Program-made: the position numbers and the translations under genes
Source: an uncultured delta proteobacterium
Lineage (GTDB): Bacteria; Desulfobacterota; Desulfomonilia; UBA1062
Assembly (NCBI GenBank): GCA_963752595.1
Contig: CAVVYZ010000001.1
Coordinates: forward strand, 32,001-96,000
Reading direction: 5' to 3'
DNA length: 64,000 bases
Part shown: positions 42,039-56,203 of the stretch, piece after piece
How the letters are laid out: each line of letters starts with the position of its first letter
Position numbering within the stretch: position 1 is the first letter of the stretch
Notes under the pieces: generated by a model
What the model saw: only the letters and a program-made list of their open reading frames with translations
Told to the model about the DNA's origin: nothing
Database searches by the model: none

Positions 42039-42067
42039 TTGTAAATTCGATTTAATGGGCTTATAAT
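42039..42067 (+). promoter_or_regulatory. Sigma70-type promoter for the GRE cluster
   Basis: TTGTAA-17 bp-TATAAT. Confidence 0.65.
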
Positions 42068-42081
42068 ACAATAATACAAGT

Positions 42082-45057
42082 ATGAAACCGCCGGGCAGAA
42101 TCAATCCGATGAATCTGATCACCCACACGGTTCTGGGTGCCATGGCTTTTGCGTTCAATCATTCCAGGACGTTGAAACGCCACATGAAAAACACCGATGG
42201 GTGGATCAATTTCTCCATTGGCATCCGCACGGGAAACGGCACGGTCGCCCAGACCGTCAGCTTCCAGAACGGCCGGGTCAGGGTATTGAAAGGCGTGAAC
42301 GGCGGTGCGGATGTCGTGCTCGAAACAGCGGACGACTCGGTCCTCAAGGAGCTCGCTTCTGCCCCGCCCAGCGAAGTGCTCAACATGATGCTCCGGAACA
42401 AGCTTACGATAGAGGGCAACGTGTCTTACCTGCAGCTCTTCACCTATTACCTTTCCCTGGTGTCGGGAAGCCTGCACGGCCGGATGCTCGCAAAGGCCCG
42501 CAGGCAAGATATAGAGTCTCGCAAAGAGGAATTTTGCGTCAATATCCCCGGTCTGGCCCAGGATCTGAAAGACAGGCGGAAAGAGCACCTGAAAGCCGAC
42601 AGGTCTGAAGACAGGGGCGTCGTGTATCTCAGTGATCCGTATCTTTCCAGCTATGACCTGGAGGACTTTCCCCGCCTCAAGACGCTCATGAAAAGGCACC
42701 GGAGCAGCAGGCCCGAGCTGTGCGCCGAGCGTCCGAAGCTGCTTACCGAGTGGTTCCGCAGGAACGGGTTCGAGGAAGCGAGCCCGGGCAGGCCGTGGCA
42801 GCCCGTACTGAGGCAGGGCCTTGCCTTCGAGCACCTGATGAGGCACAAAAGGCCGGTCATTGCCGATTCCCAGCTCCTGGCCGGATCGACCACCACCAAT
42901 CCCGTCTGCGGGGTGATCGTGTACCCCGATGCGCAGGCCACAATGATCTGGGGCGAGCTGAACTCGGTCGATAAACGGCTCCTGAACCCATACGATATCA
43001 GCGATGAAACAAAAGAAACGCTGAACGACATCTTCCCGTTCTGGACCAAAAGGACGTTCCATGAATGGGTGAACAGGGAATACAACAGGCCGCTCTCCTT
43101 GAGACTCAGCGAGCGTCTCGTCGCTATCGTCTGCTCCAAGGCTATCTGCGTGTCGCACACCGTTCCCGGCCTGAAAACATTTTTGGACAAGGGCACTTCC
43201 GGCATTATCGAGGATATCCGGGAGAGACTCTCCGAAGATACGCCGGATGAAGACGGCCGGGCAGTGCTGGAGGGCATGATCCATTCCCTGAAAGGCCTGG
43301 AGGCATACGCCGATCACCTGGCAGCAGAGGCACGGCTGCAGGCTGCCAAGGCCGCGGACCCTGCCCGGGAGAAGGAGCTGCTCCGCATGGCGGAGATCTG
43401 CGGACACGTTCCCCGCCTGCCTGCAGAAACGCTGGATGAAGCCGTCCAGAGCATCTGGACTGTCTGGATCGGCATGCACATGGAGAATACCAATGCCGGG
43501 CTTTCCCCCGGCCGGCTCGATCAGTGGCTGCAGCCTTATTACCTGGCAGACATGGAAAAGATCAGTGTGGAAGAAGGTCGTATAGATTACATCCACCGGG
43601 CCGTCGAGCTCATCGGCTGCCTTTATTTGAGGATATCAGACCATATGCCGCTCTCGCCGGACATCGGCAACATCCTCTTCGGCACGTCTCCTTCCAATCA
43701 GGTCATCACCCTGGGCGGCGTCACGCCGGAGGGCGAAGACGGCGTGAACGACATGACCTATATCTTCCTCAAGGTCACCGAGATGCTGGGCCTCCCGGAC
43801 CCGAACATCAATGCCCGCATCAACACTGAAAAGAACAGCGAGACCTATATCAGGAGGCTCTGTGAGGTGAACTTCACCACATCGGCCACGCCCTCCCTGC
43901 ACAACGATGCGGCGGTATTTGCCTCTTTGCGTCAGCACGGCTACCCGGAAGAGCACATCCGCGACTGGAGCGCCACCGGCTGCGTGGAGCCCACCATTTC
44001 CGGCCGCCATAACGGCCATACCGGCAGCATCCTCATCAACCTGGTCGCTGCCATGGAGATGGCACTTCACAACGGCTGCCACCCCCTCATGAAGTGGGAC
44101 TTAGGCCCCAAGACCGGAAACGTAGAAGACTTCCGCACCTTCGAAGAATTTTTCGAGGCCTATAGGGCCCAGATTACTTTCCTGATCGATCAGGCGGTGA
44201 GCTTGAACAACATGTTCGGAGAGGTACATGCGCGGATGAGGCCCACACCGTTCTTAAGCTCGACTATCGAGGGCTGCATCGAGAAAGCATGCGACATGAC
44301 GCGGGGCGGCGCCCGGTACAACACCACGGGTGCGGCGAACATCGGGCTGACGGATGTCACTGACAGCCTCATGGCTGTCAAGAAGCTGGTATTCGATGAG
44401 AGGAAGCTCAGCTTCTCTGAGCTCAAGGATGCCGTGGACTCCGACTTCCGGAACGCACCCGGCGTCAGGGCACTGGTACAGAACAAGGTGCCGCTGTTCG
44501 GCTCGGGCAATGCAGAAGCGCTTGCCATGGCCAACCGCGTTGCATCGCTCATCCACGGGATCTATACATCGCACCGCAACTTCCGCGGAGGCAGGTATAC
44601 GAGCGGGTTCTGGTCCATGTCCCAGCATACGGCCTACGGCAATCTTTCGGGCACGTTGCCATCGGGGAGGCTCGCCGGAAAGCCCTTCACGCCGGGGCTC
44701 ACTCCCGAGCCCCATGCCAGCCGGAGCTACCTTGATTTCATCTCGGATGTTGCACGGCTCAATCCCGAGAACATGGACAACAATATGGCATTCAACGTCA
44801 AGCTCTCACCTTCATCCAAGGACAGCCGGGAGAAAATTGTCGGCAACATGGCCGGCTACGTGAAAGCCTACTGCAGCCTGGGCGGCATGCAGATGCAGTT
44901 CAACGTGGTCGATTCCCGGATGCTCAAAGATGCTTATTCAAACCCCGAAAACTACCGCGACCTGATCGTGAGGATATCGGGATACAATGCCTACTTCGTC
45001 GCGCTTAACAGATCCCAGCAGCTCGAGCTCATCGAGAGGGCCGAGTACGGTGTCTGA
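42082..45057 (+). CDS. Glycyl-radical enzyme (PFL2/eliminase-like) with N-terminal SCP2-like domain
   Basis: Cys loop GCVEP (43978-43992), Gly loop RISGY (44971-44985), SPGRLDQ, MQFNVV, YRDLIV; about 190 extra N-terminal residues including ADVVL...MMLRNKLTIEGN. Confidence 0.9.
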   Translation: MKPPGRINPMNLITHTVLGAMAFAFNHSRTLKRHMKNTDGWINFSIGIRTGNGTVAQTVSFQNGRVRVLKGVNGGADVVLETADDSVLKELASAPPSEVLNMMLRNKLTIEGNVSYLQLFTYYLSLVSGSLHGRMLAKARRQDIESRKEEFCVNIPGLAQDLKDRRKEHLKADRSEDRGVVYLSDPYLSSYDLEDFPRLKTLMKRHRSSRPELCAERPKLLTEWFRRNGFEEASPGRPWQPVLRQGLAFEHLMRHKRPVIADSQLLAGSTTTNPVCGVIVYPDAQATMIWGELNSVDKRLLNPYDISDETKETLNDIFPFWTKRTFHEWVNREYNRPLSLRLSERLVAIVCSKAICVSHTVPGLKTFLDKGTSGIIEDIRERLSEDTPDEDGRAVLEGMIHSLKGLEAYADHLAAEARLQAAKAADPAREKELLRMAEICGHVPRLPAETLDEAVQSIWTVWIGMHMENTNAGLSPGRLDQWLQPYYLADMEKISVEEGRIDYIHRAVELIGCLYLRISDHMPLSPDIGNILFGTSPSNQVITLGGVTPEGEDGVNDMTYIFLKVTEMLGLPDPNINARINTEKNSETYIRRLCEVNFTTSATPSLHNDAAVFASLRQHGYPEEHIRDWSATGCVEPTISGRHNGHTGSILINLVAAMEMALHNGCHPLMKWDLGPKTGNVEDFRTFEEFFEAYRAQITFLIDQAVSLNNMFGEVHARMRPTPFLSSTIEGCIEKACDMTRGGARYNTTGAANIGLTDVTDSLMAVKKLVFDERKLSFSELKDAVDSDFRNAPGVRALVQNKVPLFGSGNAEALAMANRVASLIHGIYTSHRNFRGGRYTSGFWSMSQHTAYGNLSGTLPSGRLAGKPFTPGLTPEPHASRSYLDFISDVARLNPENMDNNMAFNVKLSPSSKDSREKIVGNMAGYVKAYCSLGGMQMQFNVVDSRMLKDAYSNPENYRDLIVRISGYNAYFVALNRSQQLELIERAEYGV

Positions 45058-45132
45058 CAGCGGAAACGTGACCGGCAGCCTCTTATATTAAGCAGACCGG
45101 ATCGGCAGCCTGAATCCAATGACGGAGATACC

Positions 45133-46742
45133 ATGGAGAGTAAAGACTTAAAGGATTTGATAGATACCTTCTTTACCTGCGATAAACAGGAAGTCCTGCA
45201 GATCTTCAACGAGTTCCTGGATACCCTGGTGGCGGAGGAAACGCTCACGCTCCATCGAGCCCATGAGCAGGAATTACGAGACGGCCCAGTCGAACCCCGA
45301 GATCCACATCATCCCCGGCAATCTCAAGGATGCCCGCGACGCCATTTTCCCCTTCTTCTGGGGCACGGACGGGTGGTACTCGCGGCTCCACCTGGAAAAC
45401 GTCAAGGGCCCGGCCAACTATGCCTCGCTGGTCGGCTCGTTCGCCTGCCTGCTGAAAAACCCCAACCTCTGCGTCGACACCTACAGCCAGCGCTCCAACG
45501 AGCTGGAAGTCAAGGCCATCACGCGCTGGCCAATCTCGTGTTCTACCACACCGAAGACCCCTGGGGCGTCTTCACCATGGGCGGAACCATATCCAATCTC
45601 TACGGCGGCAAGATCGGCATTGAAAAGGTGCTGCCCGGCGCCATGCAGAAGGGGCTCTGCAGGCGAGGAGGCTCGTCGGGCATCGTCTCCGAAGCCGCCC
45701 ACTATTCCAATGCAACCCTGGCCGGCTGGCTGGGCATGGGGACCGACAACCTCATCGCCATCCCCACGGACGATGCCTGCAGCATGGATCTGACCTGCTC
45801 GAAGCCGAGCTGGAAAGGCTCTACGCGGGAGGCACGCCCTGGTGGCCTTTGTCATGGCCACCTTCGGCACCACCGATGCCTTCGGCATCGACGACATTGC
45901 CGGCATCCGCAAGATCATCGACGCAAAGTCAGCGGCAATACTCCGTGCCCGCGCCGCAACTTCACGTGGATGCCGCTGTCGGCTGGCCGCTGAGCTTCCT
46001 CACCGAGTACGATGCGGAAAAGAACCCGTTCAAGCTGAACAAGGATGTGCTGGCCGTGGTGGCAGAGCTCAGGGACAAAGGCCATGAGACATCAGGTATG
46101 CCGACACCGTCACCATCGATTTCCACAAGATGGGCTGGGGCCATTATCCGTCGAGCGCCTTCATCGTCTACAACCGGAACGACATCAGCCTGCTCTTCCG
46201 GAGCATGGAGCAGATGCCGTATTTCTCCGAGGCCGATTACCGGCACGATCCGGCCCTGTTCACCCTGGAGATGCTCGCGGCCCGGCATAGGCCCGTATTC
46301 GGTCATGGCCTCGCTGAACGGCATCGGGCTGAGGGCTAGCAGATGCTCGTGGCCCATGCCCTGGAGATGGCGCTCCTAGCGCAAAGAAGCAGATCGAGAA
46401 GCTCGAATACTGCAAGGTGCTCAACATGAAATGCCTGGGGCCCAGCGTCGTCTGGTGGGTTCTGCCCAAGGGGCGGAATGCGAAAACGGATCTATCGAGG
46501 ATTTTGTCCAGGGCAGGGTCCGGCAGGAAGAGTACCAGCGGTACTTCTCCGAGGTCCACCGTCTTTTCGAGAAGCGCAAGGCTGCCATGGATCCCAGGAA
46601 AGATGCCCGGCTCAGCTTCACCACATGCATGGGCTACCAGCCCGGGGGGATTGCCATGCCCGCATGGAAGGCCGTGTTCTTCAATCCCAAGACCGATGCC
46701 GAGGTGGTGAGGCAGATCATCAGAAGCATCGAAGAAGTGTAA
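45133..46742 (+). CDS. Group II PLP-dependent decarboxylase (multiple frameshifts; assembly errors or pseudogene)
   Basis: Across frames: GVFTMGGTISN, SEAAHYS, ATFGTT, LHVDAAVG, TIDFHK (PLP lysine, about 46118-46129). Confidence 0.8.
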
Positions 46743-46830
46743 TGAGAGCCAAAAATATGAACCTGCTGATCGGCAGCTCACGGTTTCTGCCCTTAAGCAG
46801 GCTTAAGTTCTTTACCCGGAGGTTTAAAAG

Positions 46831-47898
46831 ATGAAGGGAAATCCGTTCGAAAGGCTCCAGACGTTTCTGGATCAGCTCCCTCTCGGGTTTCCCCGCACCG
46901 AGTCCGGCATTGAGATCGAGATCCTGAAAAGACTATTTACCGAAGAAGAAGCCGGGATTGCAATGCTTCTCACCCCGTTCTCCGAGGATGTGGAGCAGAT
47001 TGCGGCGAGGAACGGCATCAGCGGGGCGGGTCTCGGCGAAAAGCTGGAGTTCATGGCAAAAAAAGGCCTCTTTTTCAGGATCCGGCGTGACGGGAAGACA
47101 TATTACAACACCGCTCCCTTCATGATCGGACTCTATGAGTACTCGGTGCAGAAGATGGACCGGGAACTGGCAGAGCTCTATTCGCGATACTACGAAAAGG
47201 CCTACCAGATGGAGATGGGTGCAAGCGATGTGCCCGGGTTCAGGGTTATCCCCGTGAGCGAGAGTATCGATCCCGAGATACGAATCTACCCGTATCCTGC
47301 ACTCGAAATGGAGATCCGATCTGCCAGGAAGATCTCGGTTGCGGAGTGTATATGCCGCAAAGAAGCCGGAATGATCGGGAAGGGCTGCGGCGGGTCTCTC
47401 GAAACCTGCCTTCATTTCGGATCTGCAGCGGAATATTATATTGAAAACGGCATCGGCCGGGAGATCGATGCGGATGAGGCAATAGAGATCGTCAAGGCTG
47501 CCGACAAGGCCGGCCTGGTGCACGCAGGGGTGAACACCAGACATCTCTCCAATCTCTGCAACTGCTGCCCGTGCTGCTGTGCATCGATGAAAGGCATAAC
47601 CGCCAAAGGACTGGCCAGGCGCAAATACCTGAATCCCCTCTATGAGGCCGTTATCCATGATGATAATTGCACCGGCTGCGGGCTCTGTGCCGATCGATGC
47701 CCGGTCAGGGCCGTCACGATCGATGATGCATCCCGGATAAACAGAGACCTGTGCCTTGGCTGCGGTCTGTGTGCCGGCACCTGTCCAACGGGTGCGATAT
47801 CCCTCATCCCGCGGTCGGACAGGGAGGAGCCCTTCGAGCATATCCTCGATCTGGGTATGGCAATCCTTCAGGGCAAAGCTCGACCAGCCAAATCATGA
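46831..47898 (+). CDS. 4Fe-4S dicluster protein with N-terminal winged helix
   Basis: GFPRTESGIEIEILKRLF, CICR, CNCCPCCC, two CxxCxxCxxxCP motifs. Confidence 0.88.
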   Translation: MKGNPFERLQTFLDQLPLGFPRTESGIEIEILKRLFTEEEAGIAMLLTPFSEDVEQIAARNGISGAGLGEKLEFMAKKGLFFRIRRDGKTYYNTAPFMIGLYEYSVQKMDRELAELYSRYYEKAYQMEMGASDVPGFRVIPVSESIDPEIRIYPYPALEMEIRSARKISVAECICRKEAGMIGKGCGGSLETCLHFGSAAEYYIENGIGREIDADEAIEIVKAADKAGLVHAGVNTRHLSNLCNCCPCCCASMKGITAKGLARRKYLNPLYEAVIHDDNCTGCGLCADRCPVRAVTIDDASRINRDLCLGCGLCAGTCPTGAISLIPRSDREEPFEHILDLGMAILQGKARPAKS

Positions 47899-48088: not shown

Positions 48089-48450
48089 ATGCGCAGCATT
48101 GTTCATTTATCCGACCTTCATTTCGGACGCGTGGATCATACCATGCTCAAGCCTCTTGCTGCCGCAGTATGGGAAATCATGCCCGACCTGGTGGCGATAT
48201 CAGGGGATCTCGCGCAGCGGGCACGGGTCGAAGAGTTCAAGGAAGCAAGAGCATTTCTGGACTCGCTTCCGGTTCCCCAGATCATTGTTCCCGGGAACCA
48301 CGACATTCCGCTCTACAATCCATTCTTTCGTTTTCTGCTTCCTCTTGCAAGGTTTACCCGGTATATATCTGCCGACCTGTCGCCTTTGTATGCGGATCAG
48401 GAAATCGCTGTACTGGGCGCCAATGCCACCCGTTCGCTGGTGGCAAGGCG
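48089..48450 (+). pseudogene. Metallophosphoesterase, 3' truncated
   Basis: HLSDLHFG, SGDL, PGNHD are present; homology ends after NATRSL, and the later His motifs are absent. Confidence 0.8.
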
Positions 48451-48665
48451 AAGAAGGGAAAAGATATTTTTCCTGAAATACGTGACCCTGCCCCCATTTC
48501 AATTGTTGCTGCCGTGCTTGTTATAATCTTACCTGTATCCGGAATCTGAAGGCAATCGGATAACATTGTCTTGATATTGTATGAGAAAGAGGAGAGCCGG
48601 TGTGCCTGCCGGCTCTCATTGTTTCGCACTTCCTGAGGGAGTGTCTTCAAAAGGGTATCTTGCCG

Positions 48666-52385: not shown

Positions 52386-54317
52386 ATGAGGAAGTTTTTT
52401 GACCCGATATGCAAGGTCATAACGTTTTTCTGTTTCATCATGGTCGCGCTCTTTGTCTACGATTTTTTCTTCTGGTCGAAGACCGAGGAGGGGAGGCTTG
52501 CATCAAAGGTAATCATAATCTTTTTCTCCCTCGCGGGATTCTTTATGTATTGCATCCACTGCATGATCAGGAAAGGAGAACACGCTGACAATCAAAGCTC
52601 ATGGGACAGCTTTGAAGCCCAAAATGAATATGAAAAAGAATATATCGCACTGGGATATGCCCTTCCCCATGAAAGGACCGAAACTCTCCCCGTACACGGA
52701 CCTGAGATCACGAGTATATACAAACTGAAAGTCATGAGCCTTGCAATAGCAGGTTATGCATATATCTTCGGGATTATTTGCGCACTTGCCTCTCTCCTGT
52801 ACCATCTTGTCCGGTTTGCTTTCACGACTTCCTATCCGTACATTCTCTTGCTCATGAGCATACCGGTTCTGTTCGTCGTCACGGTATTACTGGGAGCCAT
52901 GCTCGCGACAGTCCGAACCCGCATGACACCCCCGAAGGGCATCGAAGTTGCCCGCGACGATGCACCGGAACTTTTTGAAACGGTGAACCATCTGAGGAAA
53001 CGGCTGCAGGGCCCTCGCGTGGGCAAGATTGTGCTTACGAATGATTTTGCTGCATCCATTGTCCGGATTCCGCGGCTCGGGATTTTGGGATGGCACAAGA
53101 ATTACCTTGTCCTGGGGCTCCCGCTTCTTCAGGCCCTTTCCGTAACACAGACACTCGCACTTCTTGCGCATGAGTACAGCTATCTCTCAGGAGAGCACGT
53201 CTGGTTTGATTCCTGGATCTACAGGCTCAGGCAAACCTGGATGCAGACCATGAGGGCCCTGGAGAACCGGAAACACTGGAGCCGGTCGATCGCAACTCGG
53301 TTTTTCCGATGGTATGCCCCGTATTTCCATTCATATACCTTGCCACTCGCAAGGTCCCGGGAATACGAAGCGGATCTGTGCTCCGCCACCTTTGCAGGCG
53401 AGAGTGAAACCGCAGCAGCACTGGTACGGGCCCATGTGCTGGAGTTCTATCTACAGGAGTCATTCTGGCCGATGATAACGGATATGATGGAGACCCAGCC
53501 CGAACCCGTTGCATCGCTCTATGGGCTCATGCAGGAAAAATTCCAGCAGGGCATTGATGAGGGTCAGGCAAAAGAATGGGTCGAGAGATCGCTCCAAAAA
53601 GAGCCGGGATCAACCGATGCCCATCCGGACCTGAAAAAACGTCTGAATGCCATAAATGAGGCACCGGTCTTCCATAATTCCCTGGCGATGAGCTCCGCGC
53701 AATACTATTTTCCGGATCTCGATGCATTCAGAAAGCTTTTCGATGACGAGTGGCGATCATATATCAGAGCATCCTGGCAGGAAAGATATGCCTATGTACA
53801 CAAATTGAGAACCAGAATCGAAGAACTGTCTTCAAAGGCACGGCTGAAGCCATTGAATCTCGAAGAAGCCCTGGATCTTGCCTACCTCACCGAGGACCTT
53901 TCGGGCAGTGGAAAGGCATTACCTTTGTTCGAGCGCATCCTGAAATACAAACCCGAGTGCGTACCGGCTCTCTGTGCAGCGGGAAGGATAATGCTGGCAA
54001 ATGGAGACGAATCCGGGGCAGCCTGCATCGAACGGGTAATGGCTTTGGATTTGAACTACAGCATTTACGGCCTTGAAGCCCTTTATAATTTCTACCTGGA
54101 AAAAGGAGACCGGGAAAAGACCGGGAAGTATTACCAGAAGCTGTCCGATCAGAGAGATCTGATCGAGCATGCAGAACAGACGCGGAAATTGGAGACGGAA
54201 AGAGCCGCGTCCGCAGAAAAAGGTAAGAAGAACATCCGGAAGAAATTGCATACGGAGAGAATGAGCCTGGGATTGATAAAGGTGTGCCCTGTAGAGAATA
54301 ACCCTATCTTCCCGTAA
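52386..54317 (+). CDS. M48 (HtpX-like) membrane peptidase homolog with TPR-like C-terminus
   Basis: TMs, APELF, LVLGLPLL, ALLAHEYSY, REYEAD, AHP...RL. Confidence 0.85.
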   Translation: MRKFFDPICKVITFFCFIMVALFVYDFFFWSKTEEGRLASKVIIIFFSLAGFFMYCIHCMIRKGEHADNQSSWDSFEAQNEYEKEYIALGYALPHERTETLPVHGPEITSIYKLKVMSLAIAGYAYIFGIICALASLLYHLVRFAFTTSYPYILLLMSIPVLFVVTVLLGAMLATVRTRMTPPKGIEVARDDAPELFETVNHLRKRLQGPRVGKIVLTNDFAASIVRIPRLGILGWHKNYLVLGLPLLQALSVTQTLALLAHEYSYLSGEHVWFDSWIYRLRQTWMQTMRALENRKHWSRSIATRFFRWYAPYFHSYTLPLARSREYEADLCSATFAGESETAAALVRAHVLEFYLQESFWPMITDMMETQPEPVASLYGLMQEKFQQGIDEGQAKEWVERSLQKEPGSTDAHPDLKKRLNAINEAPVFHNSLAMSSAQYYFPDLDAFRKLFDDEWRSYIRASWQERYAYVHKLRTRIEELSSKARLKPLNLEEALDLAYLTEDLSGSGKALPLFERILKYKPECVPALCAAGRIMLANGDESGAACIERVMALDLNYSIYGLEALYNFYLEKGDREKTGKYYQKLSDQRDLIEHAEQTRKLETERAASAEKGKKNIRKKLHTERMSLGLIKVCPVENNPIFP

Positions 54318-54341
54318 CGCCTTTTTGTTTATCATACCGAG

Positions 54342-54388
54342 AAGGCATCCTCCCTTTCCCTTAAAAAGAGAAGGGAGGATGCCTTTTT
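54342..54388. terminator. Intrinsic terminator between convergent genes
   Basis: Perfect 15-bp stem AAGGCATCCTCCCTT / AAGGGAGGATGCCTT followed by Ts. Confidence 0.8.
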
Positions 54389-54397
54389 CAGGTTCTG

Positions 54398-56203
54398 TTA
54401 TTCGCCTTCCTTGTACAGAGCTTCGATGCTGTTGTTGTATCTTTCCGTGACATTCTTGCGCTTGAGCTTCATGGTCTGGGTCAGCATCCCGTTTTCCAGG
54501 GTGAACGGCTCTGAGATGAAGATGAACTTTTTCGGGATCTCGTAGCTGCCGTACTTGGTCTTCAGGGCATCGAGGATCTCCTTGGTGATCATCTTCTGCA
54601 CATCCTCCCGCTCTGTGAGGGCCTTGTAGTCTTTCGGCAGGTTGTTCTTCTGAGCGTATCCGTCCAGGGCGACAGGATCGGGCACGATCATGCAGACATT
54701 GTAAGGCCTTGTTGGCGCCGTAGATCAGGGCGTTCTGCACGTAGTGGTTCAGGCAGATATCCTCCTCCAGTGCTGCGGGGAAGACATACTTGCCGTTTTC
54801 GAGCTTGAACTGCTCCTTGATGCGGCCCGTGATCCACAGGAACCCGTCTTCGTCGATGCGGCCGCGGTCGCCGGTCCTCACGCCGCCGTCCGGGGTCATG
54901 ATCTCTTTGGTCGCTTCGGGCTTGTTGTGGTAGCCCTTCATGACATTGGGGCCGTAGCAGATGATCTCTCCGTCTTTGGCACCCGGCTCGACCACGGACT
55001 GGTCGATGACCACCCTGATCTTGTCCATCACCGGGCCCACGCTCCCGATCTTGAAGTTGCCGGGGCAGTTCATGGTAATGCCCGGGGTGGTTTCGGTCAT
55101 GCCGTAGGCATCGTAGAGAGGAATGCCGATGTCGTAGAAGAATTTGGAGATATCGGGGTTCATGGCCGCGCTGCCTGTCATGGAGCCGCGGAGCCTTCCC
55201 GCCGAAGAGGTCGCGGATCTTCTGGAACACGATCTTGTCCACGAGCTTGAACTTGAGTTCTGCCATGAAGCTCGACTTGCCCTGATCGGCCAGGCGTCGC
55301 GCTTTCTTTGCCGGCCTCAACGCCCATATCGAAGAGCGGCTTTCTTGAACCCGCCGGCATCATTCACTTTCGTGACGATCGTATCATACACCTTGTTGAA
55401 GATGCGGGGGACCGCGATGAGGAAGGTGGGCCTGATCAGCGCCATGTCCTGAACAACGGTGTTCGTGCTCTCCATGAAACCCATGGACCCGCCGAGCGCC
55501 GTGAACGTATGGAGCTCTCCCAGGCCGAAGCAATGCGCCCAGGGCAGCAGCGAGAGGACCTGTCGTTCTCGTTGAAATCGGGATAGGCCTTTGCCCGTGC
55601 ATGGTGGTTGCTCGTCCAGTTCATATGCATGAGAAGGACGCCCTTCGGGTCTCCCGTCGTACCGGAGGTGTAGACAAGGACTGCCACTTCCTCGGGATCC
55701 GGATAGATGGACTTGACCGGGTTCTTCTCTCCGATCTTTTCCAGCTCGGCCATCGTGTCCTTGCCTTCCCCGGCGATCACGATTGATCTTTTCCAGGGTA
55801 GGAATGCGAGAGGGAAAATCCTTGATCTTTGCCAGGATCTCCGGCTTTGAAACAAAGAGGACCTTGATGGCGCTGTCCTTGATGATGTATTCCCAGACAT
55901 GGGTCAGCTCCGCTTCGTACATGGGGACGTAGAAGGCCCCAAGACCCACGGTGGCATAATGGCCGACAGCCCAGTCGGTGCTGTTGTTGGAAATGATGCC
56001 CACTGCATCGCCCCTCTTGATGCCCAGGCCTGCCAGTCCGCCCGCAGATTATCGACACGACGGCCTACTTCGCGGTAGGTGACCCATTCGTACACCCCCT
56101 GCTTGTTCTTCGTGCCCAGAAACGGCCTGTCGGGAAATCGCTTCACGCTGCTCTCGAACAGCTCCACCAGATTGTCCGGTTTATCGAGCTGAAATTGAAC
56201 CAT
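54398..56203 (-). CDS. Long-chain fatty-acid--CoA ligase (several frameshifts)
   Basis: Across frames: [60 protein letters not shown]. Confidence 0.9.

Follow-up and report, generated by a model that had tools for sequence, protein, structure and literature searches.

Which substrate would call for a glycyl radical enzyme (GRE) with a lipid-carrier domain at its N-terminus? The question is raised by a gene in a 64,000-nucleotide stretch of DNA, here called the window, from an uncultured delta proteobacterium (assembly GCA_963752595.1, contig CAVVYZ010000001.1, positions 32,001 to 96,000 of the forward strand), whose genome we refer to as G000. The gene encodes a GRE joined to a domain of the SCP2 fold, and the fusion is real and family-wide. 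A lipophilic substrate of some kind is very probable. Our preferred, still tentative, reading is that the substrate is a long-chain lipid, with a sphingoid-type amino-diol the first candidate, and that an oxygen-free radical 1,2-elimination at the lipid's polar head would yield a long-chain aldehyde. The first-pass annotation, made from the sequence alone, had suggested a long-chain substrate such as a lipid-derived amino alcohol or diol, and the partner genes and the eliminase type of the enzyme likewise make this lipophilic class the likely one.

The architecture is apparently undescribed. In the sections available to us of a 2026 GRE review (PMC13450708), the eliminases listed all take small soluble substrates. 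A term search of that review for 'SCP', 'sterol' and 'fused' gave no matches, and among the literature matches listed, all open papers, there was no description of an SCP2-fused GRE and no anaerobic bacterial sphingolipid pathway.

A probable eliminase-type GRE with an SCP2 domain

The window enzyme is a member of the GRE superfamily, with a PFL-like barrel (Pfam match to residues 198-853), a glycyl radical domain (870-973), and Gly and Cys loops that are both intact, as first read (Table 1). The N-terminal SCP2 domain, for which the first-pass annotation had proposed a structural check, was also confirmed. Pfam PF02036 matches residues 30-120 with E 1.1e-4 and 22.9 bits, just over the gathering cut-off of 21.3. 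In a whole-protein AlphaFold model built from a 58-sequence alignment (pLDDT 88.1, pTM 0.91), a compact alpha/beta N-terminal domain is followed by a long helix and a linker reaching to about residue 190. When a separate model of residues 7-135 (pLDDT 80.8) was searched with Foldseek, every strong row was an SCP2-fold protein, including UbiJ-SCP2 (E 3.6e-7), AF1534, the alkylsulfatases SdsA1 and Pisa1, and animal (including rabbit) and fungal SCP2. A profile search with residues 1-190 gave 135 representatives, short proteins for the most part.

The Cys loop has the CxE motif of eliminases, as had been noted, and C634, V635 and E636 are invariant across 58 of 58 aligned homologues. The closest folds are the propanediol, glycerol and hydroxyproline (Hyp) dehydratases and CutC, at about 30% identity. 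Together, CxE, the dehydratase-like fold and H359 make this a likely eliminase-type GRE. It is not of the PFL or fumarate-adding (BssA/MasD) type, having GCVEP instead of Cys-Cys and scoring 107 against 994 bits with TIGR01255. The earlier placement outside characterised GRE clades holds as well, the enzyme lying below every NCBIfam GRE cut-off, including those for CutC (TIGR04394, 403 versus 1050 bits) and HypD (NF043068, 425 versus 1100 bits).

Family, subtypes and active site

In a family search, 747 of 7,995 scored candidates passed E<=1e-50. The best 120 homologues are 54-100% identical to the window enzyme, nearly all are about 950-1070 residues long, and all 120 carry the N-terminal SCP2 domain. 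A genome scan retained 79 SCP2-GRE loci, many cut by contig ends and many from related genomes; 74 gave an SCP2 domain match, and the other five lie at a contig end, with the match beginning later. By record title the carriers include Syntrophaceae, Smithella, Desulfomonilia, Desulfatibacillum alkenivorans, Desulfosudis, Spirochaetota and Actinomycetota. Many such groups degrade fats and hydrocarbons.

A tree of 98 GRE sequences, read with an active-site table, splits the family into subtypes A, B and D. Common to all are K353, H359, G473, F533, C634, E636, T647, W844, M846 and H849. Subtype D (45 loci plus two tandem B+D loci) has W352, A472, D539, N648 and N848, with Asp539 present in 47 of 47 enzymes; subtype B (16 loci) has W352, T472, D539 and G648; and subtype A (13 loci plus the window) has S352, A472, T535, N539 and G648. 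The changes from D to A are thus W352S, D539N and N648G, and subtype D is about 53% identical to the window enzyme. An activase gene accompanies subtype D in 33 of 45 loci, and the 13 subtype-A loci have neither activase, TetR nor short-chain dehydrogenase/reductase (SDR) genes nearby. The window enzyme belongs to subtype A, a derived type; its active site is altered, and it has no local activase or TetR. At least 10 of the 12 genomes with subtype A, and G000 too, hold a second SCP2-GRE paralogue; it is of subtype D in all seven cases fetched (L215-L221), and also in L068, L071 and L016.

Some related loci differ in composition. At L192 and L193 the SCP2-GRE is flanked by Zn-alcohol dehydrogenases, a split transketolase and an SCP2-GFO oxidoreductase fusion. 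G000 encodes two further uncharacterised GREs, each with its own activase, at C13:95491-97866 (L082) and C9:64000-65982 (L083); their Cys loops, CVEMA and CLENT, are unusual, and an enzyme like that of L082 lies near a ceramidase in L237.

Conserved partners, proposed activation in trans and the TetR regulon

The genes that recur in the 79 loci are an activase (43 loci), a 3-ketosphinganine-reductase-like (KDSR-like) SDR (18), an extended SDR (12), an aldehyde:ferredoxin oxidoreductase (AOR; 6) and an acyl-CoA synthetase (6). Each of the 18 KDSR-like SDR genes accompanies a subtype-D enzyme. A TetR gene is found in 31 of the 79 loci at 40% identity or more, and in 39 by looser clustering. No small-subunit gene recurs among the clusters of open reading frames of at least 90 residues at these loci.

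No activase gene lies near the window GRE. A family-type radical-SAM activase is found elsewhere in G000, on contig C15 at 159359-160318, beside the second paralogue, a placement that the first-pass annotation had missed. That locus (L081, C15:159359-166220) holds a subtype-D SCP2-GRE, frameshifted in the assembly, with TetR, the activase and a divergent AOR; an acyl-CoA synthetase and a CoA ligase are nearby, and a strong operator lies at 164082. Activase specificity follows the Gly loop, according to section 2.5 of PMC13450708. From these data we infer that the window GRE may be activated in trans by the C15 activase. The identity of the Gly loops, the presence of second paralogues, and the operators found at stand-alone activases (below) all support activation in trans.

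The TetR operator consists of two 11-bp palindromes with the consensus TAACACTGTTAACTTAACAGTGTTA, as at L058:7142 and L081:12083, and stands ahead of 52 of 57 TetR genes, in regions that are related and in some cases from the same genome. In G000 a scan gave one strong site, on C15 (score 35.1; next 17.6; shuffled sequences gave 2-3 matches at >=8). There was no operator match on contig C1, and the window GRE lacks the operator. The pattern was then scanned in 30 genomes, where most perfect operators were at TetR-GRE loci, of subtypes B and D both. Among the perfect operators away from a GRE that were fetched, those in G209, G210 and G227 are at stand-alone activases; in G203 one precedes an AOR, the GRE being elsewhere; in G202 the TetR/AOR pair is at a contig end; and in G233 one precedes a unit of TetR, acetoacetate-decarboxylase-like (ADC-like) and SDR genes. 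Weaker sites were mostly uninformative (L309, L311, L312, L314, L344, L348). That activase and AOR genes keep the operator when relocated speaks both for activation in trans and for an aldehyde as the product; an aldehyde is favoured also by the AOR at six of the 79 loci.

The operator also marks other genes. A perfect copy at L343 accompanies TetR, ADC-like and SDR genes beside a saccharopine-dehydrogenase-like gene, and a copy with two mismatches is found at L310 at a saccharopine-dehydrogenase-like gene and an FGGY kinase gene. G000 lacks this operator-marked saccharopine-dehydrogenase-like block at the corresponding position.

A proposed sphingoid link

The partner SDR may tie the family to sphingoid bases. 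For its C-terminal half, TSC10 (8JAT) was the best single-domain match, and in the ESM Atlas its top named cluster was the '3-dehydrosphinganine reductase family', an automatic name. When metagenomes were scanned with the partner-SDR profile, 80 loci were retained, drawn from 3 of 64 collection parts. The closest matches are in SCP2-GRE operons (L085, L086, L088, L090; L084 has an activase only), and 14 of the 80 loci, more distant ones, have a neighbour of the serine palmitoyltransferase (SPT)/AONS family. Four of these SPT-like neighbours were scanned, and the best model was NF047600 (SPT) at 495-541 bits, below its cut-off of 640. A tree of 119 SDRs places those linked to GREs and 12 marked SPT-adjacent SDRs in one clade, with support of 0.998.

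The gene content of carrier genomes points the same way. The ceramidase PF04734 is present in 17 of 50 chosen carrier genomes. Within the window's phylum it is found in 3 of 12 carriers versus 3 of 189 others, and within the order of genome G079 in 2 of 7 carriers versus 0 of 124, where the 12 phylum carriers include two contig-edge or short matches. KDSR-like genes are present in 38 of the 50 chosen carriers and 9 of 12 subtype-A genomes; carriers and others compare as 6 of 12 with 10 of 189 across the phylum, and as 4 of 7 with 8 of 124 across the order, from searches of at most 12 (phylum) and 19 (order) candidates per genome versus up to 50 for the 50 carriers. Fisher p-values for these enrichments are 0.003 or less, and overstate them because kin are not independent. 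SPT-like genes, found in 41 of 201 phylum genomes, occur in only 1 of 12 carriers. Carriers therefore look like consumers, not makers, of sphingolipids, which fits breakdown over synthesis.

The active site offers a further link. In CutC and HypD an aromatic residue packs on the amine, according to PMC8473560. The residue aligned with that aromatic is Asp539 in subtypes B and D and Asn in subtype A, which suggests that Asp539 may be suited to a primary ammonium.

The searches also turned up loci of separate interest. A KDSR-like SDR gene lies directly beside an SPT-like gene in L092, L093, L095, L102, L106 and L112, and again in L114, L116, L117, L119, L122 and L123; these pairs are candidates for operons that make sphingolipids with the help of a eukaryote-like reductase. 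Ahead of the SDR gene in L093 is a GNAT gene which we take to resemble bacterial ceramide synthase; it had no NCBIfam match at 1e-20. A class III aminotransferase and a RuBisCO-like protein are encoded together at C17:3-2525 of G000 (L235) and at L180, and are 70-87% identical to the pair in a G079 locus of ceramidase, TetR, FGGY kinase, aminotransferase and RuBisCO-like protein; the C17 contig starts inside the aminotransferase gene, and upstream genes may be unassembled. At L177 a KDSR-like SDR gene is near genes for an acyl-CoA dehydrogenase, an ADC-like protein and a GH5 protein with a PF18564 C-terminal domain, the last presumably endoglycoceramidase-like.

Proposed reaction

In the eliminase scheme of PMC13450708 (section 5.6), the Gly radical gives rise to a Cys thiyl radical, which takes a hydrogen from the carbinol carbon. 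Applied to the window enzyme, the C15 activase would act in trans to generate the radical on Gly967, and the alkyl tail would be gripped by the SCP2 domain, which would present the head group to the barrel. The Gly967 radical would pass to C634, whose thiyl radical would abstract hydrogen from C1; Glu636 would deprotonate the C1 hydroxyl, perhaps helped by His359; and the C2 substituent would depart, as ammonia where the substrate is a sphingoid base. The product, a 3-hydroxy long-chain aldehyde, would be oxidised by the AOR and fed by a CoA ligase to beta-oxidation. Subtype D, with Asp539 and its KDSR link, would be the core enzyme for sphinganine, and subtype A, with W352S, D539N and N648G, might act on a variant of that head, for example in a base that is 4-hydroxylated or N-acylated. 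Extended to the whole family, the proposal becomes a little more doubtful: SCP2-GREs may be anaerobic sphingoid-base lyases, in which TetR-run subtype D would deaminate sphinganine supplied by the KDSR-like reductase and activase-less paralogues would borrow the activase, widening the range to hydroxylated or N-acylated bases.

Evidence against sphingoid substrates, and alternatives

Several observations weigh against a sphingoid substrate. The link comes from subtype D, which shares about 53% identity with the window enzyme, and subtype A is without the Asp539 that would bind ammonium. KDSR-like, TetR and activase genes are all missing from the 13 subtype-A loci, none of the 12 subtype-A genomes shows a ceramidase, no ceramidase, KDSR-like or SPT gene was found in G000 (84% complete), and a KDSR-like SDR was not found in G201, the nearest relative of G000. 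His at 359, where CutC has Asp, is a dehydratase feature. The SDR assignment has its own weak points: the GRE-linked SDRs are a sister subclade to the SPT-adjacent ones and not nested within them, TSC10 was not among the best 60 matches in whole-length PDB searches with the SDR, the bacterial KdsR model scored 128 versus a cut-off of 400, and the SPT-like neighbours too fall short of their threshold. No operator was found at ceramidase loci or at KDSR loci outside the operons. Finally, the co-occurrence of ceramidase and KDSR-like genes with SCP2-GREs may reflect a lipid-scavenging lifestyle and kinship, and the SDR background in the phylum and order comparisons may be undercounted.

An unlikely but the best surviving alternative is that the enzyme dehydrates another long-chain vicinal diol or polyol, such as an alkane-1,2-diol, a dihydroxy fatty acid or a hopanoid side chain, or acts as a phytosphingosine 3,4-dehydratase that makes 3-ketosphinganine for the KDSR-like SDR. 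His359 and CxE are as in diol dehydratases, the Zn-alcohol dehydrogenases and split transketolase of L192 and L193 would suit such a substrate, and the best NCBIfam match of the extended SDR, far below cut-off, is the hopanoid-associated HpnA. The KDSR-like SDR in 9 of 12 subtype-A genomes fits as well, but its absence from the searches of G000 and G201 does not, and an operator before the AOR favours an aldehyde over a ketone.

Slightly less probable again is an alkylglycerol (ether lipid) lyase or dehydratase, in which 1-O-alkylglycerol would give 3-alkoxypropanal or a free fatty alcohol and the SDR would act on alkyl-dihydroxyacetone. The nearest structures are the glycerol and propanediol dehydratases, whose His164 is retained, and GREs that cut ether C-O bonds exist (YbiW and PflD; PMC13450708, section 5.7). 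Alkylglycerol ether lipids are produced by Desulfatibacillum alkenivorans, according to PMC11181052, and this species is among the carriers (L031, strain DSM 16219, with TetR, activase, GRE and KDSR-like SDR genes). An aldehyde product would fit the AOR here too, phospholipase A1 and FAD_binding_4 oxidase genes are near some loci, and the lack of Asp539 in subtype A counts in its favour. Ether lipids would, however, leave unexplained the SPT-adjacent relatives of the SDR, the ceramidase enrichment, and Asp539 in every subtype-D enzyme.

Improbable, too, is a small soluble substrate, an amino-alcohol like serinol or a polyol, with the SCP2 domain serving as a structural element or as an anchor to the membrane. 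Characterised eliminases do all take small substrates in section 5.6 of PMC13450708, but the SCP2 domain is retained throughout the top homologues, the partner genes are lipid-type, and the SCP2 domains fused to alkylsulfatases have been seen with C10-C12 ligands, to judge by structure entry titles.

Upstream region and neighbouring genes in the window

The features of the locus are collected in Table 1.

Table 1. Coordinates, in window positions, of the SCP2-GRE gene, its motifs and its neighbours
Feature	Position	Strand	Remarks
Sigma-70-type promoter TTGTAA-17-TATAAT, 14 nt 5' of ATG	42039..42067	+	spacing kept in subtype A
SCP2-fused glycyl radical enzyme, subtype A (activase-less paralogue)	42082..45057	+	991 aa
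SCP2-fold N-terminal domain, ~aa 9-130	42106..42471	+	Pfam PF02036 aa 30-120, models, Foldseek
Cys loop GCVEP, aa 633-637 (C634, E636; eliminase CxE motif)	43978..43992	+	
Gly loop RISGY, aa 964-968 (G967)	44971..44985	+	identical in C15 paralogue having activase
Group II PLP decarboxylase gene, frameshifted in assembly	45133..46742	+	lineage-local neighbour, outside the system
4Fe-4S dicluster (Fer4) protein, 355 aa	46831..47898	+	multi-paralogue family; outside the system

The promoter reported in the first-pass annotation was located ahead of the GRE gene. A promoter scan by itself is at chance level (8 found versus 6.6 expected), yet 11 of 13 upstream regions in subtype A, window included, keep that spacing together with the distance of 14-15 nt to the start codon. 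No ribosome-binding site is visible before the GRE ATG, and the gene may be read from a short-leader mRNA.

Downstream, the Fe-S gene is as first described, but the pyridoxal phosphate (PLP) decarboxylase gene is not one open frame. Compared with the intact 532-residue orthologue in L001 it has 16 small indels, and the GRE gene has none. The first two indels are missing from contigs of a close strain, and some segments of G000 are present twice, as one clean and one indel-rich copy; for these reasons assembly error is the likelier cause of the frameshifts and gene decay the less likely. Read coverage of the stretch came, piecewise, from four DNA runs of one study, and no RNA data set was listed as holding it. 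A metallophosphoesterase gene at 48089-48526 and an apparent AMP-binding enzyme gene at 53919-55922 also look broken, which fits indel errors scattered in patches through the assembly.

Neither neighbour belongs to the system. The decarboxylase adjoins the GRE in 1 of the 79 loci (L001, whose GRE is 88% identical), and its orthologue occurs in 4 of 50 carrier genomes, beside the GRE in G201 only. It resembles amino-acid decarboxylases, and sphingosine 1-phosphate (S1P) lyase is not among its 24 PDB matches; on these matches and the adjacency and genome counts it is rejected as an S1P lyase or pathway partner. None of the 79 loci has the Fe-S gene beside the GRE, G000 holds about ten of its paralogues, and it is rejected likewise. 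L001 has a DAGK-family gene in its place, and an L005 protein that had clustered with it had no match at E<=1e-20. The first-pass annotation had the decarboxylase making the substrate and the Fe-S protein serving the pathway, and had staked this on co-conservation of the decarboxylase; despite the shared strand, a 75-nt gap with no terminator-like site found between the genes, the same GRE-decarboxylase order in L001 and close-strain contigs that span both intergenic gaps, the survey counts fail to bear it out and make that model very improbable.

Significance

With a large clade of lipid-carrier GREs in sediment and digester anaerobes that degrade fat, the reach of radical elimination would extend as far as membrane lipids. 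If the sphingoid reading is true, these would be the first GRE eliminases acting on a membrane lipid and the second C-N-cleaving eliminase after CutC, and would allow ATP-free, oxygen-free recycling of plant, fungal and bacterial sphingolipids in sediments. The vague 'lipophilic substrate' of the first reading is narrowed to a short assayable panel. The handles gained are a defined TetR operator with which inducers could be screened, a partner reductase that can be assayed in one step, and natural active-site variants (A, B and D) presumably sharing one activase.

Comparison with known systems

Among known GREs, glycerol dehydratase (1R8W/1R9D) and propanediol dehydratase (5I2A/5I2G, 9RCO) are nearest in structure, with TM-scores of 0.91-0.93 on the target at 26-30% identity. 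Like glycerol dehydratase, the window GRE has CxE, H359 at the position of His164 and F533 at that of F333; unlike both dehydratases, it has an SCP2 domain and no adjacent activase. The H281/S282, Y339, D447 and Y640 of glycerol dehydratase become A/G, N, G and W, and of the substrate-binding set His164, His281, Asp447 and Tyr339, only His164 is kept. These small residues in place of bulky ones (H281/S282, Y339, D447) would make room for a tail. The glycerol dehydratase numbers, other than His164, Cys433, Glu435 and Phe333, are read from the alignment or presumed. His164 is the proposed acid of glycerol dehydratase in PMC13450708 (section 5.6.1).

CutC is the only C-N-cleaving 1,2-eliminase given in section 5.6.2 of the same review. 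The window GRE resembles CutC (5FAU, 9F3W) in CxE, in the Gly that follows the beta-2 Thr site, in the invariant Thr647 at the T502 position, and in Ser-x-Ser after W844; it differs in having H359 for Asp216 and in lacking the aromatics Phe395 and Tyr506, in place of which it has N539 and L651. The residue set that marks CutC is Asp216, Phe395 and Tyr208/Tyr506. The assignment of CutC residue numbers to these motifs is our own assumption. With HypD (6VXC/6VXE) it shares a His160 equivalent and CxE, and at the D339/F340 site, where the alignment is gapped, subtypes B and D have a nearby acidic residue; unlike HypD, the window GRE is without an equivalent of Asp278. The diagnostic residues of HypD are Asp278, Phe340 and Thr645 in PMC7077986, a set that the window GRE does not match.

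Outside the GREs, SdsA1, Pisa1 and UbiJ likewise join an SCP2 fold to a catalytic unit for hydrophobic substrates, with unrelated chemistry and 12-17% identity. The known route from a sphingoid base to a long-chain aldehyde, through sphingosine kinase and S1P lyase, consumes ATP, depends on PLP and breaks the C2-C3 bond. The proposed route would also give an aldehyde, but by radical loss of ammonia, with all 18 carbons kept.

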